Positions 540 to 14,054 of a DNA stretch of 64,000 bases are shown piece after piece. The stretch lies in the IMG/VR virus record IMGVR_UViG_3300021431_000012, positions 11,699 through 75,698 of that record. The stretch is one strand, 5' to 3'. The notes under the pieces were generated by a model, which saw nothing but the letters and a program-made list of their open reading frames with translations, was not told where the DNA came from and did no database searches. The first letter of the stretch is position 1; each line of letters starts with the position of its first letter. A program made the translations under genes and the position numbers. The DNA is from a virus (Duplodnaviria; Caudoviricetes).

Positions 540-583
540 GCGTATTATTCTAACTTAAAACAATAAAAAGTTTTAATCAACCA

Positions 584-4293: not shown

Positions 4294-5106
4294 TTAACTG
4301 CACACTTGCCCGTAACTAAATGAATTTTTCAAGCCACGAATGTAGCCAGCTAGTTTTATTTGTAGCTTTCTATCATCACCGCTAAACTCCCAACCGCTAA
4401 ATAGCGACGAGTCAACGTCGTTGTAATCACGCATAAGCTGAAGAATCTTTGCACGATTTTCTTTGTGCGTGTTAATACGCCACCACCCGCGCCATGTGGT
4501 CGGGTCATCATTCTTGCATACGTCGGGAAACACATTGCGAAGCACTTTGATAAAAGCCTGCGTGTCGCGGCTATTCTTCTTGCGCTCGTTTTGTGTTTTT
4601 GCACGCCGTGCTATGATGTCCATTTTCTCTGCTTCGCTTTTTGCTTTCATTGCGGCAACATATTTCTCGTTGCTTGCCCCCAGCTTTTCACCTTTTGCCT
4701 TCAATGCCGATAGTGCTGCGGTCGTGCGTTGTGAACAAAGTTCGCGCTCGTACTGTGCAACACTAGCGAACACACCCAGCAAAAGAGTGTTTATCGTCGG
4801 CATGTCGCAAAAATGAATTTCGATTCCCGTGTTCACCACCTTAAAGCAAAACTCAACATCACGGGCGAGGCGGTCTAGCTTTGCAATAACAAGCGCACAC
4901 GCATTGCTCCTGCAATATTCTATCGCCGCAGCTAACCCTTTTCTATCGCGGTGCGTACCACTTTCCACGTCGCTAAATTCGGCGGCACACACGCCGCCAG
5001 AACGCTTGATAAAGTCCTCGCACATGGCTCTTTGTGCCGCCATACCTAAACCACCAGCGCCCTGCTTGCGTGTAGACACGCGAAGGTATATTGCAAATTT
5101 TTTCAT
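4294..5106 (-). CDS. Serine recombinase, resolvase/invertase family
   Basis: YLRVSTRKQ catalytic Ser motif, DVESG, LVIAKLDRLARD, ASVAQYERELCSQRT..AL...KAKG..LG. Confidence 0.9.
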   Translation of the reverse strand: MKKFAIYLRVSTRKQGAGGLGMAAQRAMCEDFIKRSGGVCAAEFSDVESGTHRDRKGLAAAIEYCRSNACALVIAKLDRLARDVEFCFKVVNTGIEIHFCDMPTINTLLLGVFASVAQYERELCSQRTTAALSALKAKGEKLGASNEKYVAAMKAKSEAEKMDIIARRAKTQNERKKNSRDTQAFIKVLRNVFPDVCKNDDPTTWRGWWRINTHKENRAKILQLMRDYNDVDSSLFSGWEFSGDDRKLQIKLAGYIRGLKNSFSYGQVCS

Positions 5107-5339
5107 AATTCTCCTCCGTAAAAACTTCCGTACAATATCACTTTTGTATCTTTGTGACGAAGCCTGCCGCATTTGTTTATGCGTATATTACTCACTCCAC
5201 AAAGGCTATAGACATCTGCCGCAGCTTCACGAGCATTTTCCAAATTGTCGCACTTGATTGCATAGTGTTTAGTTTGATAGCCCATTAACCTAAAATAGTT
5301 GTTAGGTCTTATCTGAAATGTTACATATATTTTTTTCAT
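5103..5339 (-). CDS. Hypothetical protein
   Basis: ORF track; 4-nt overlap with the resolvase start. Confidence 0.6.
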   Translation of the reverse strand: MKKIYVTFQIRPNNYFRLMGYQTKHYAIKCDNLENAREAAADVYSLCGVSNIRINKCGRLRHKDTKVILYGSFYGGEL

Positions 5340-7296: not shown

Positions 7297-7863
7297 TTAG
7301 CAGTCACTAAACACGCAGCCCGATTCTTCGTCAAAAGAATAATCAAACCGCATATCGCGCTCAAACGCTTCATAATCAAAATAGCGAGTAAAAAATTCTG
7401 GCACGCCACTAGATAAGCATTCGATTTGCTCGTTAGCACATTCGTCCGTGAAGTCGCGAAAGCTGTCATACTTCCCCATGAATCTATCCCGCGCCTTTTC
7501 AAGAATATCTTCAAAATCTTTCAGCTCGCAGCCATGAATGCGAACGTACGCCTCAACCATCTCGCGCTCGTCTTCGTCTAGTTCCAGCCAGTCAATAATA
7601 CGCTGCACGTCATCCGTACACATGGACTCGCTATAAAACTCTTCGGGAAATCCCTGAAAGTCCTGCATCATAAACTCTGGGTCTGCTTCGTCTTCGTGAA
7701 GACGGCGACACACCTCAAAAAATTCTTCAGCATCATTGCAGCTTTCGAGGTCTATCCACGCGCCTTCAATGCTGCCCTCGGCATACTTTTTGTACGTCCC
7801 AACATACAAACCGACGCCATCTGCATCTTGCATCAGGTAGTCGTTTACGTTTTCTTTTTTCAT
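7297..7863 (-). CDS. ardA: Antirestriction protein ArdA (acidic DNA mimic)
   Basis: YVGTYKKYAEGSIEGAWIDL, EFMMQD..GFP, YFDYEAFERD motifs; highly acidic; start moved to MKKENV. Confidence 0.9.
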   Translation of the reverse strand: MKKENVNDYLMQDADGVGLYVGTYKKYAEGSIEGAWIDLESCNDAEEFFEVCRRLHEDEADPEFMMQDFQGFPEEFYSESMCTDDVQRIIDWLELDEDEREMVEAYVRIHGCELKDFEDILEKARDRFMGKYDSFRDFTDECANEQIECLSSGVPEFFTRYFDYEAFERDMRFDYSFDEESGCVFSDC

Positions 7864-7979
7864 AACATAAACCTGTTTAAATTGTTTCGCGGAAATATCT
7901 CCGTTTGTGGGCTGGGCGGCGTTCCTCAACGCCCTGGCTGGTTTTAACAGACGAGCCCTCCTTTGTGTCGCGGCGCGGC

Positions 7980-8462
7980 CTACTTTGCGCTGTTGGCTTC
8001 GTCGCTTTCGTTTGTGTCTTCTTTTGTGTTTTGTGTTAGCATTTCTAGCCACGTGTCACACTCGGCTAGCATGTCGGCCAGCTTTTGTTCGTCATCAATT
8101 TCGTAACGCCGTGCGATACGGGCGCGAATATATTCCGCCTCGTTTTCATAATAACGTACGGCGGACTCGCGTGCTATTTCTATTTCGTCCGCGTCGGTGC
8201 ATTGTGCAATGTCATCAGCCCAAATAATCTCCGAAGTCCACTCCGCACCGTTTGCGGCACAATGTACGAAGCCGACACGCAGACCGTCGATAAAAATGCT
8301 ATCAACCATGCCGAACACGGGCGAGCCCTTTTTGTCGGTGTACTTTGCAAACGTGCCGACGCACCCGCTAAAATACACGGGGGTTTTGTTTGCTTTGGCG
8401 TTGTTTATTGTGTTAATGTTTTCGGCGCAAATTGCGCTTTCATTGTTGCTGTTCGTTTTCAT
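7980..8462 (-). CDS. Hypothetical protein
   Basis: ORF track. Confidence 0.65.
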   Translation of the reverse strand: MKTNSNNESAICAENINTINNAKANKTPVYFSGCVGTFAKYTDKKGSPVFGMVDSIFIDGLRVGFVHCAANGAEWTSEIIWADDIAQCTDADEIEIARESAVRYYENEAEYIRARIARRYEIDDEQKLADMLAECDTWLEMLTQNTKEDTNESDEANSAK

Positions 8463-10948: not shown

Positions 10949-11260
10949 TCACCATAGCTCGGAATTTATAACTTCTTCCTGAACTGCGATTGATTCCTGA
11001 TTGAACAGCTTTTTAAGCGTGTCGCAAAGATTTTTAACTTGCATTTTTTCGGCAAATAACAACTCAATGCGCAGCGTTGTTTCGGTTACAATTTGCCCGT
11101 TTTCGTGCTTGTAAATACCTTTTGCCTCAAAAATTGTGCCTCCGTCAAAATCGGCAGAGATTAAGTTACTAACAATTTTGTAGGCTTCTACTGTCGCAAT
11201 TTGTTGCGTTTTTGTATCTTTGTCGTTGAGACCGAGATACAAAGTAAATTTTTTAATCAT
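10949..11260 (-). CDS. DUF3574-like protein
   Basis: LYLGLNDKD...GGTIFEAKGIY...E.TLRIE...LK..FNQESI. Confidence 0.6.
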   Translation of the reverse strand: MIKKFTLYLGLNDKDTKTQQIATVEAYKIVSNLISADFDGGTIFEAKGIYKHENGQIVTETTLRIELLFAEKMQVKNLCDTLKKLFNQESIAVQEEVINSELW

Positions 11261-11377
11261 AATAAAATACGTTTTAAGTTAGAATAAGTTAGAATAAATT
11301 TGCACCATATTCGCGGACTCGCACCGCTTCTGCCCGTCTAAAAATTTACGGGAAAGGGTAGTAAAAACTCCTTCGTT

Positions 11378-11393
11378 TGTTTCACGTGAAACA
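11378..11393. promoter_or_regulatory. parS palindrome 1
   Basis: Exact TGTTTCACGTGAAACA, the canonical chromosomal ParB-binding consensus. Confidence 0.8.
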
Positions 11394-11501
11394 TAAGAGT
11401 TTTAAATTATTTGGTACGTCTGCCCGCGGCCGTCGGCGTGTCGCGCTTTTCGGTTGACTATCGCCCGCCTGGTGAGTGTGCCATGTACGTGCTGAACTTC
11501 G

Positions 11502-11517
11502 TGTTTCACGTGAAACA
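11502..11517. promoter_or_regulatory. parS palindrome 2
   Basis: Exact TGTTTCACGTGAAACA. Confidence 0.8.
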
Positions 11518-11639
11518 AACAAAGAAATTTTCATATAATAAAATAATATGTTTCTTTCGTCGTTTTCCTTTGTGCATTTTGCTACATTCAACACTCTCCA
11601 AAATAACTTTTTTAATCGCTAGAAAATTAAAACGCTTTG

Positions 11640-12195
11640 TTTCGTTTTAGGTTTTTCGTCTTCGCGAAAAAGCTATTTTTCGCGGCTCTATTTTACTAGA
11701 GCCGAATTTTTCGCTCGCGGCATGCACTCGCCGCCGTTGTTTTTATTCGCGTCTATTAAGCACTCTCGCTGCCGTCTGGCTTCGTCCCGCCGTCGGGCTT
11801 CGGGTGATTTTACAACGAATTCCGCGCCATGTTCACCCCGTACTATCAAACGCCAAACCGTTCTCCCGTTTGGGATACCTCCGCCTGCTGCTATGCCTAC
11901 TCTATTACGCTAGTGAGCCTGCTCGGGTCTGCGTCGCGTTGTCTGTGGTCGTTAAATTATCATGTTTTAACCGCCGCCCGTTGGGCGTGCGTTGCGCGTT
12001 GTGTCAATAGGTTACAAAAAGCGGTGAGCCCGTATCAACTCACAAAAACAAATCACTCGCGCCGTGTTCGTTGCCTGGTGTCCTCGTTGCGACGCGTTGC
12101 ACGTCGTTTTAGTCTAAACCCTCGAGGGTGCCTGTCTCGGCGATGCGTCGGGTGTCCCCGTTGCGCTTTGTTGTAACCACTATTTCAAAGAACAC
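11640..12195 (-). ncRNA. Candidate large structured RNA / long leader of the early operon
   Basis: At least 8 stems directly downstream of a consensus promoter, no credible ORF, and G-U pairs that work only on the minus strand. Confidence 0.45.
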
Positions 12196-12199
12196 GATG

Positions 12200-12231
12200 C
12201 AAAGGTACGCATTATTTTTTAATCCACCAAA
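12200..12231 (-). promoter_or_regulatory. Consensus Bacteroidetes promoter driving the leftward early region
   Basis: TTTG (12231-12228), 20-nt spacer, TACCTTTG (12207-12200). Confidence 0.8.
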
Positions 12232-12273
12232 TTTTTTTGCAATTATTTTTTAAATATTTAAAGTACTTTTTTA

Positions 12274-12834
12274 TAACTCGTTGTAAATCAATGAGTTACG
12301 AATATTATTTATAATTAATCTAAATAAGCGTGTTTAGTGCGTAAAATACACGCTATTATTGCCCGTTGTTTGCATGTTCTTTTATATATACATTATTATA
12401 TATAATATATAGATATAATCTATCATGATATAATATTAATTAAATGTATCTTTTACACTATAAAACAAACGTATAACAAAGAAATATAAATAATAAATAT
12501 TATGATAAATAAAACACGTACATGGCAAACGTCCTATTTATCATAATACCTATTTAATCATGCAAAAAGCGGTTTTCACTGTGTGCGCACACAAAACGGC
12601 GATTTTTTCGGGTGTAGATATGTTCCCCACAAAACACCCGAAAACGCAACACGGGCAAAACAACGCGTTTTTCGTTTTTCTTGACACTGATAGAATCAAA
12701 ACGCATAACTAATTGAAAATCAATGAGTTATAATGTGCAAAAATAAAAAGGTACGTTAACTCGTTGACTATCAAGTAGTTACAAAAAATCACGCTTTAAT
12801 AGATGTTTATAACTAATTGAAAATCAATAACTTA
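12274..12834. repeat. Four copies of a 25-bp imperfect palindrome, consensus TAACT-N2-TTG-N4-TCAA-N2-AGTTA
   Basis: Copies at 12274-12298, 12706-12730, 12757-12781 and 12810-12834 (the last ends AACTTA). Confidence 0.8.
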
Positions 12835-12874
12835 AACCCAAATTTATGAAATGTAAATGTTTTTCATATAGCAT

Positions 12875-13090
12875 TATTTAGTGTATATATTACAATATAT
12901 TATAGTAATATTATAGTAATAATATAGAAATACTATTATAGTACTTTTATAGTATATCACAACATATTACTACAGTATATTATATAGTATTACGATAGTA
13001 AATAACAATCAAATAATAATATTATAATATTATAATCATGATAAAATAATAATAATATAATAGTAATAATATTATATATAATATATAGTG
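12875..13090. other. Extremely AT-rich low-complexity tract (candidate unwinding element)
   Basis: About 215 nt dominated by TAT/ATA/TAATA with almost no GC-rich stretch. Confidence 0.45.
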
Positions 13091-13124
13091 CCTTTACTAC
13101 TTTTTGCGAGTTTTGTGTTGTCAT

Positions 13125-13140
13125 TGTTTCACGTGAAACA
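13125..13140. promoter_or_regulatory. parS palindrome 3
   Basis: Exact TGTTTCACGTGAAACA. Confidence 0.8.
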
Positions 13141-13512
13141 TTTGTCGATTTTTTGCCCGTCCGCTTTCGTGCGTTGTGTGTTTTCCCGTTGTTGTTTTTG
13201 TTATATGTTCGTTTGTCAAAATCAAAACCGCGTATTTTGGCCGCGTGTCGGCGTTGTTGGCGGGCGTTGTGTGTGTGGACGCTCGCGACGTTTTAACGCA
13301 ACACGCGCAAAGAAAACGCCCAAATTTGCGACGTTTTGCCGTGCGGCAGAATCGCGTGAGGAGGTGTCGCTTTTTCGTGCGCTTTATTCAAGAAGGGGGG
13401 GCGGGGGTACGCGCCGCCGCAATGATGTGGTGCAAATCGTCCAATTTTTTCTGAAAAAATTTTTTTGAAAAATTTACGAATTACAAAAATATATTAAATT
13501 TCTAGTAATAAT

Positions 13513-13544
13513 ATTGCAATTGCTTATTAAATTTATTATATTTG
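13513..13544 (+). promoter_or_regulatory. Bacteroidetes promoter for 13599-14409
   Basis: ATTG, 20-nt spacer, TATATTTG (13537-13544). Confidence 0.6.
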
Positions 13545-13598
13545 CAAGCTAGTATTTCTTTACTATGCTAGTATAGTGTTAATATATATAGATAATAG

Positions 13599-14054
13599 AT
13601 GGCTGATTTTCAAGTTACAGGTCATATAAGTCGCATTCGTAGGAAGAACGGTGTTATTTGTGTGTACGTTGATGAGTACATGCGTGGTTTTCGTCGTTCT
13701 GATGGTGAGGTTGTTCAAGAGAAGCATTTGACGTGGTGTTGTGTGTTTAAGAATGCGTTTAGTAATTTTTTGGATAGGATTGGTATTGGTAGTTTAGTGA
13801 CGATAAAGGGCGAGATACTACCTTATGGTCGTAGTATAGATGAAAAGGTTGAAGGATATACGTTATTTGGTCAAGTGATAAATGTTGCTTCTTATCCGAA
13901 ATTTCTTCGTGTTGAGGAAAAGATGGTTCGTGATTCGTCAAAGGTTGTGGATGTGCAATCGTCTGATTCTGTTGTTAGTGATGAGGGTAGTGATAGTGTT
14001 AGTCGCAATATTGTTGTTCCTGACATATATGGGTTTAATGAGCCAGATTTTTAG
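13599..14054 (+). CDS. SSB-like OB-fold protein
   Basis: FQVTGHISRI...TW.CVF...IGSLVTIKGEI; acidic/aromatic C-terminus EPDF. Confidence 0.55.
   Translation: MADFQVTGHISRIRRKNGVICVYVDEYMRGFRRSDGEVVQEKHLTWCCVFKNAFSNFLDRIGIGSLVTIKGEILPYGRSIDEKVEGYTLFGQVINVASYPKFLRVEEKMVRDSSKVVDVQSSDSVVSDEGSDSVSRNIVVPDIYGFNEPDF

Follow-up and report, generated by a model that had tools for sequence, protein, structure and literature searches.

A candidate folded leader RNA at the head of the early operon of a probable Bacteroidales phage, in a slot filled by unrelated leaders in related phages

The ORF-free stretch behind the early promoter of this phage is reasonably likely to be a folded non-coding leader RNA, with a two-domain core under selection and a fast-changing tail, carried as a cassette that is swapped among related phages. 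It is probably a real structured RNA family and a new one, and on sequence grounds is presented here as a candidate family from three metagenomic contigs, within an under-described pattern of swappable early leaders in Bacteroidales phages. The stretch of DNA analyzed, hereafter the window, is 64,000 nucleotides (nt) long and corresponds to bases 11699–75698 of a virus record that spans 75,698 bp, has a GC content of 41% and carries direct terminal repeats of 127 bp; positions given without a contig name are those of the window. A first-pass annotation had proposed a hairpin-dense transcript of about 550 nt behind a consensus promoter, as either a large ncRNA or an antiterminator leader, on the basis of nine inverted repeats. 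All nine repeats and the promoter sit exactly where it had placed them.

Promoter and control region

The large terminase of the phage shared 53.6% identity with its counterpart in Bacteroides phage C3_41T2LP, the nearest cultured relative, which is missing from the phage-collection matches to DUF3574 or the ATPase. The MAGs holding relatives of the first early gene were from Bacteroidales and Muribaculaceae, and the host of this phage is probably a member of the Bacteroidales. The leader lies in an ORF-free zone of 2.3 kb (11261–13598) with a leftward early operon on one side and a rightward gene on the other (Table 1). The operon is apparently at least 11 kb long, its minus-strand ORFs reaching the left edge of the window.

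The promoter was assessed against the Bacteroidota rule of a −33 TTTG and a −7 TAnnTTTG, which the promoters of this phage obey. Its sequence, TTTG-N20-TACCTTTG, matches this −33/−7 consensus (the first-pass annotation had called it a consensus promoter) and would place the transcription start at about 12196. The promoter was conserved in four related contigs (L018, L017, L009 and L010).

Table 1. Coordinates of the leader and of neighboring features in the window.
Feature	Position	Strand	Details
Operator-like 26-nt palindrome	12273..12298		One of four copies; directly 5′ of the promoter
Early promoter, Bacteroidota type	12200..12231	-	−33 TTTG 12231–12228; −7 TACCTTTG 12207–12200
Type A leader core, ~385 nt	11812..12196	-	Closed by helix H1 (12196–12190 with 11822–11812); alignment A4 and RNAalifold
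Domain 1, multi-stem, nearly invariant	11999..12188	-	Closed by H3, an invariant 17-pair long-range helix (12182–12164 with 12023–12005); includes the hairpin 12043–12024
Window-specific 34-nt insertion	12084..12117	-	Tip of a domain 1 arm; holds CGACG-N7-CGTCG
Terminator-like hairpin and U-run	12013..12043	-	GUGAGUU-GAUACG-GGCUCAC 12043–12024, CGC, U-run 12020–12016; terminator scan
Domain 2, helices H10–H17	11823..11998	-	All 10 compensatory pairs
Variable tail	11640..11811	-	Hairpins 11786–11797, 11684–11703 and 11663–11684; no covariation signal
A-rich linker	11518..11639	-	Contains a block conserved in type A loci; reaches the first parS
parS pair around a GC-rich spacer	11502–11517 and 11378–11393		Two perfect TGTTTCACGTGAAACA sites; downstream boundary of the swapped cassette
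DUF3574 protein gene (PF12098)	10949..11260	-	First gene after the leader

Several DNA elements share the zone. Three perfect chromosomal-type parS sites (TGTTTCACGTGAAACA) were found, the pair listed in Table 1 and a third (parS3) at 13125–13140; the two left sites were kept, some imperfectly, in L009, L016, L017 and L018, and a search of the phage genome for ParA (AAA_31 type) and ParB (ParB_N) genes gave none. Between the second parS and the start codon, the consensus fold was weak. The operator-like palindrome AACTnnTTGAnnnTCAAnnAGTT recurs at 12705–12730, 12756–12781 and 12809–12834 in addition to the copy next to the promoter, with no others within the window and similar sites in L041 and L009; these palindromes are probably binding sites of a repressor or initiator. 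AT-rich repeats with an 11-nt period and 13–19% GC (12886–12954 and 13008–13090) lie between the operator cluster and parS3 and, judged by sequence, are origin-like or resemble bent DNA in character. A second GC-rich, U-poor island (13141–13440, minus strand) is found 3′ of a minus-strand TAnnTTTG (13491–13484) and ends at parS3; it is unrelated to the leader described here, since nhmmer found no homology between them.

The early operon also has a gene for an ArdA-like anti-restriction protein and one for a serine recombinase or invertase (7297–8052 and 4294–5172, minus strand), and their presence together with the parS sites and operators fits a temperate or plasmid-like lifestyle. An exact 17-mer, TTATTCTAACTTAAAAC, occurs just 5′ of the DUF3574 start codon (11271–11287, minus strand) and again at 545–561 (plus strand), where it adjoins a tRNA-like region near 250–500; a related stretch is also present 5′ of the ATPase gene in L018.

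Coding capacity, homologs and the conserved core

The leader has a GC content of 52–56% against 19–31% in its flanks, bearing out the contrast that had been reported, and its minus strand is poor in U (A.31, C.24, G.28, U.17). Evasion of Rho through composition was considered and is unsupported, as the leaders do not differ from the coding early genes in C/G ratio or in pyrimidine content. No credible ORF was found in the leader stretch under table 11, TAG=Q or table 4, and the insertions and deletions that separate it from its homologs (34, 28, 1 and 3–4 nt) show that no reading frame is preserved; the first-pass annotation had noted that the overlapping ORFs look spurious. In single-sequence folding, the whole-region MFE gave a z-score of −2.36 for the minus strand and −0.21 for the plus strand. 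The number of local hairpins is at chance level for such a composition, with six on the minus strand versus 4.9 ± 2.2 in dinucleotide shuffles (106 of 300 shuffles equaled or exceeded the observed count); the description of the region as hairpin-dense does not hold.

Two homologs of the leader were reached by walking from neighboring proteins to their contigs, both from metagenomes: L018, with 85% identity over 12329–11285, and L017, with 76% identity over 12276–11820 and a diverged tail. An nhmmer profile of the leader, run on the window in full and on over 60 related loci, recovered only the window itself, L018 and L017, with no paralog. There was no match by blastn among 50,697 phage records, a single-protein locus search in IMG/VR gave nothing, exact-pattern scans of IMG/VR with conserved leader segments gave only a 20-nt chance match, and a JGI metagenome pattern scan returned the L018 contig again and no other. 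By BLAST, the leader was absent from the 401 sampled Bacteroidales genomes and three MAGs searched. With the Rfam 15 covariance models at gathering scores, the sole match in the 64 kb was a tRNA-Gln, leaving the leader outside any Rfam 15 family (including GOLLD, ROOL, 6S and the Bacteroidales motifs); relaxing the search to E ≤ 10 over 11000–13700 produced only noise (≤23.6 bits, far under gathering scores). No self-cleaving ribozyme of the hammerhead, twister, pistol or hatchet classes was found over the same interval, even at E ≤ 10, and the window's leader is thus not a ribozyme-terminated phage leader.

The leader of the window and its two homologs is termed type A. In the three-way alignment, the promoter and the first ~200 nt were nearly invariant, the next 180 nt had diverged and the last 170 nt were riddled with indels. 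The larger changes comprise the 34-nt insertion in the window (12117–12084), a 28-nt deletion in L018 and a replaced tail in L017; the insertion occupies an arm tip, like those of expandable RNA helices. The RNAalifold consensus contains two domains, 17 helices and 109 pairs, with 96.3% of cells paired.

Pairs in which both sides had changed with pairing retained numbered 10, versus 4.1 ± 1.5 with shuffled partners (none of 500 shuffles reached 10) and 0–2 with slid partners, and re-folded column shuffles gave means of 2.6–2.8 compensatory pairs and maxima of 6–8 (none of 100 reaching 10); the sample is three sequences, all 10 pairs come from the L017 lineage and the structural model derives from the same alignment, which together count against the reading of a selected fold. 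Covariation among homologs, on which the first-pass annotation had staked its proposal, is thus present in this three-sequence alignment. The alignment-fold z-score was −2.62 for the minus strand and −1.27 for the plus strand, with values of −2.24 for domain 1 and −2.77 for domain 2. Domain 1 showed no compensatory changes because its sequence is ~93% conserved. In addition, nine G-U pairs were invariant and about 11 one-sided changes kept the pair by wobble, and these features together with the z-scores favor the minus strand. Most likely, judging from the alignment, the fold of the ~385-nt core is kept by selection.

The hairpins listed at first pass fared unevenly. Only three of the nine (12043–12024, 11975–11987 and 11864–11875) were kept in both L018 and L017, and the other six were missing or unsupported as RNA elements. 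Specifically, ACCCTCGAGGGT lacks palindromy in both homologs, the CGACG-N7-CGTCG hairpin falls inside the insertion specific to the window, the CCCG-N4-CGGG hairpin (11786–11797) was deleted in L018, and the two 3′ hairpins (11684–11703 and 11663–11684) were identical in L018 and absent in L017. The proposal of a structured, non-coding RNA of ~550 nt is supported in part, on the minus strand, with the conserved unit shortened to ~385 nt and most of the listed hairpins set aside as conserved elements. Its broader form, a large ncRNA or leader, is backed by the compensatory substitutions, the promoter and the missing frame, and matches neither GOLLD, ROOL nor any other Rfam family.

The pentamer CAACG was counted nine, nine and seven times in the three type A copies, versus ~1.5 expected (0 of 200 shuffles), and by eye it seems to recur in the non-homologous L017 tail of the alignment. 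Most occurrences lie across helix junctions, with CAA unpaired and CG opening the next helix, so that the motif may be a structural grammar and not a protein-binding site.

Unrelated leaders in the same slot

By their flanks, the closest phages are L009 and L010: across the parS pair and DUF3574 they share 88% identity with the window, and in the sequence preceding the promoter 74%. From 12195 to the parS pair their sequence (type B) is dissimilar to the window, with homology resuming at parS; on the promoter side, similarity is lost 5 nt past the −7 box, where transcription is inferred to start. Conversely, in L018 the type A leader precedes a different, Kyano_Gp96-like first gene. In all, five non-homologous leader types were found in the slot. 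In the relatives of type E it is filled by proteins (200 and 143 aa) giving no informative family. Types B and C share no motif with type A.

The type B leader alone gave no folding signal (z −0.45), and folding is thus not universal in the slot. Additional leaders without homology to these were found in more distant relatives (L004–L007, L021, L039 and L040). The type C leader (L005–L007 and L040), by comparison, is GC-rich, ~330 nt long and shows a very strong consensus fold (z −7.2) with four compensatory pairs; it had no match in Rfam and is a better-supported candidate for a new RNA family than the window's own leader. Its coordinates are L005:2870–3210, with equivalents in L006 and L007, and it is also present in L040.

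Ribozymes accompany the leader in some relatives. A Hammerhead_II (56 bits) follows the type C leader 30 nt before the DUF3574 start codon (L005:3403–3470 and L006:3404–3471), and a Pistol ribozyme (50.6 bits) is located in the leader of L021 (1500–1574). A twister-P1-like match in L004 (335–405) scored 48.5 bits, under the gathering score of 67.2. A weak Hammerhead_3-like site was also observed just 3′ of DUF3574 in L002 (3803–3854).

Four of the five leader types (A to D) have a composition in common (A.27–.33, C.24–.29, G.27–.30, U.16–.19; GC ~50–55%) in a genome of 41% GC, and L039 carries another GC-rich leader whose per-window values look similar. That unrelated leaders have nearly the same composition speaks for selection acting on the transcript rather than for neutral spacer DNA, which would drift to the AT-rich composition of intergenic regions. 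This bears on the alternative that the stretch acts as DNA within the 2.3-kb control region (as an origin, a ParB element or an operator) or is a functionless GC-rich spacer with chance hairpins. Such an explanation would suit a zone with the three perfect parS sites, the four operator-like palindromes and the AT-rich repeats of 11-nt period, and also the hairpin count at chance and the absence of a folding signal in type B, both of which speak against a folded leader. However, the compensatory changes in nested long-range helices point to pairing in RNA, and transcription is directed away from the AT-rich repeats, making a primer or origin-activating role unlikely. An element acting as DNA, or a mere spacer, is on this evidence improbable.

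Possible roles and comparison with known systems

For a folded leader RNA, the proposed course of events is as follows. The host RNA polymerase would start at ~12196, and 12196–11640 (minus strand) would form the non-coding 5′ part of the early transcript, its first ~385 nt folding into two domains followed by a hairpin tail. Action at the RNA level, as a folded, nuclease-resistant head of the early message, is suggested by a promoter-proximal non-coding element with conserved pairing, its boundary at the transcription start, the composition common to the leader types and the ribozymes of relatives. In those relatives a ribozyme would sever this head; in the present phage, which has no ribozyme there and only the weak hairpin and U-run at 12043–12016, it probably remains attached or is trimmed by host RNases. 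The leader may thereby set the stability or output of the early genes while encoding nothing. A role in cis would be one in stability, insulation or attenuation and a role in trans that of a decoy or sponge. A fixed single task in cis predicts conservation among near-identical phages, yet the leader is swapped, and this swapping suggests action in trans.

One form of action in cis is antitermination or attenuation, either by a put-like modification of the polymerase or by the hairpin and U-run at 12043–12016 gating read-through. The leader sits directly 3′ of the promoter of the long operon, and the terminator-like hairpin, ~155–185 nt after the start, is conserved. In Bacteroides capsule operons, leader-dependent antitermination takes place via the NusG paralog UpxY. 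The hairpin (helix 9) was kept in all three type A sequences, with an A-U pair becoming G-U in one homolog and U-U in the other, but it is weak, with two G-U pairs and a 3-nt spacer before the U-run, and the U-run (12020–12016) doubles as the 3′ strand of H3, with no conserved competing helix found. Moreover, terminator-like sites in the operon are only in mild excess (27 versus 17.4 ± 4.9, both strands), a NusG-like gene is absent from the phage, and the leaders of types B and C lack any motif of type A. The suggestion that the RNA lets polymerase read through the operon thus gained no specific support, with the leader swapped in the closest phages, and this mechanism is distinctly improbable.

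A different role would be that of a stand-alone early ncRNA acting in trans, released from the message as a decoy or sponge for a host defense or an RNA-binding factor and exchanged as an arms-race cassette. Unrelated cassettes in the same slot of phages with 88%-identical flanks are consistent with this, as are the enrichment of CAACG in all three type A copies and the place of the slot at the start of the early region in which the ArdA-like protein is also encoded; in relatives, the ribozymes would free the leader from the mRNA. In the window, however, neither a ribozyme nor a clear terminator ends the RNA, the placement of CAACG mostly at helix junctions may make it structural, and antisense matches to the phage genome do not exceed chance. 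We regard a free trans-acting RNA as unlikely. Extended to the whole group, the tentative proposal, which we also hold at low probability, is that the first transcript of these Bacteroidales phages would deliver large structured RNAs that can replace one another (types A, C and others; 300–550 nt). Their action on the host would be in trans, as decoys against defense systems or RNA-binding factors for instance, and ribozymes would release them in some lineages.

Protein anti-defense genes are usual at the head of phage early operons, and trans-acting leader cassettes, if real, would be their RNA counterpart and a new class of phage tools for host takeover in the dominant gut phylum. If the folded leader serves mRNA stability only, it would still provide a well-defined setting in which to study how 5′ leaders work in Bacteroidota, whose rules of translation and RNA decay differ from those of E. 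coli.

Among known systems, the leader resembles GOLLD (RF01998) and ROOL (RF03087) in being hundreds of nt long, multi-domain and phage-associated, but it is smaller, has no Rfam match, is known from three contigs and is a 5′ leader, whereas theirs is a free-standing gene near tRNAs. The HK022 put RNAs are RNA-only processive antiterminators. Like put, the leader is a cis-encoded RNA directly 3′ of an early promoter and heads a long operon; however, put is ~70 nt with two stem-loops as opposed to a ~385-nt core with 17 helices, and unrelated sequences take the place of the leader in sister phages. P4 CI and P1 C4 are immunity RNAs that arise by processing of the leader of the operon under their control. 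Like the present RNA, they are regulatory RNAs encoded in an operon leader, the operon being an early or immunity one and the phage a temperate one of plasmid type, a lifestyle at which the parS sites and operator-like palindromes hint here, but they are only ~70–80 nt, and neither P4-like internal complementary boxes (of the seqA/B/C type) in the leader nor antisense targets in the phage genome exceeded chance.

ColE1 RNA II, a structured replication primer of ~550 nt, likewise lacks an ORF, starts at a strong promoter and belongs to a control region of the replication/partition type. A replication primer of this type was considered and rejected: the AT-rich repeats (12886–13090) are upstream of the promoter and transcription runs the opposite way, from the repeats toward the early genes, so that a primer role is unlikely; no antisense promoter was found, and the link to replication is purely positional.

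Closest are the phage leaders that end in a ribozyme. In the haloviruses HF1 and HF2, an ‘HHphage’ hammerhead precedes the first early gene by 13 nt and its cleavage site coincides with the mapped 5′ end of the mRNA, and prophages carry clustered hammerheads (Perreault et al. 2011, PMC3088659). Like these, the window has a long non-coding stretch that separates the early promoter from the first early gene, and such a stretch fills the corresponding slot in related phages; it differs in lacking a detectable ribozyme of the four classes searched, and in a folded body that is not described in the hammerhead-phage literature (PMC3088659). That literature keeps yielding long non-coding leaders heading phage early operons. 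The present analysis adds that the folded body appears to be selected in its own right, that near-identical phages exchange it from the transcription start onward and that it is paired with ribozymes in some relatives. The leader is thus not a member of the GOLLD, ROOL, put or CI/C4 RNA types and, by analogy, appears to resemble most the ribozyme-ended non-coding leaders of phage early operons, minus the ribozyme and with the folded body as the conserved part.
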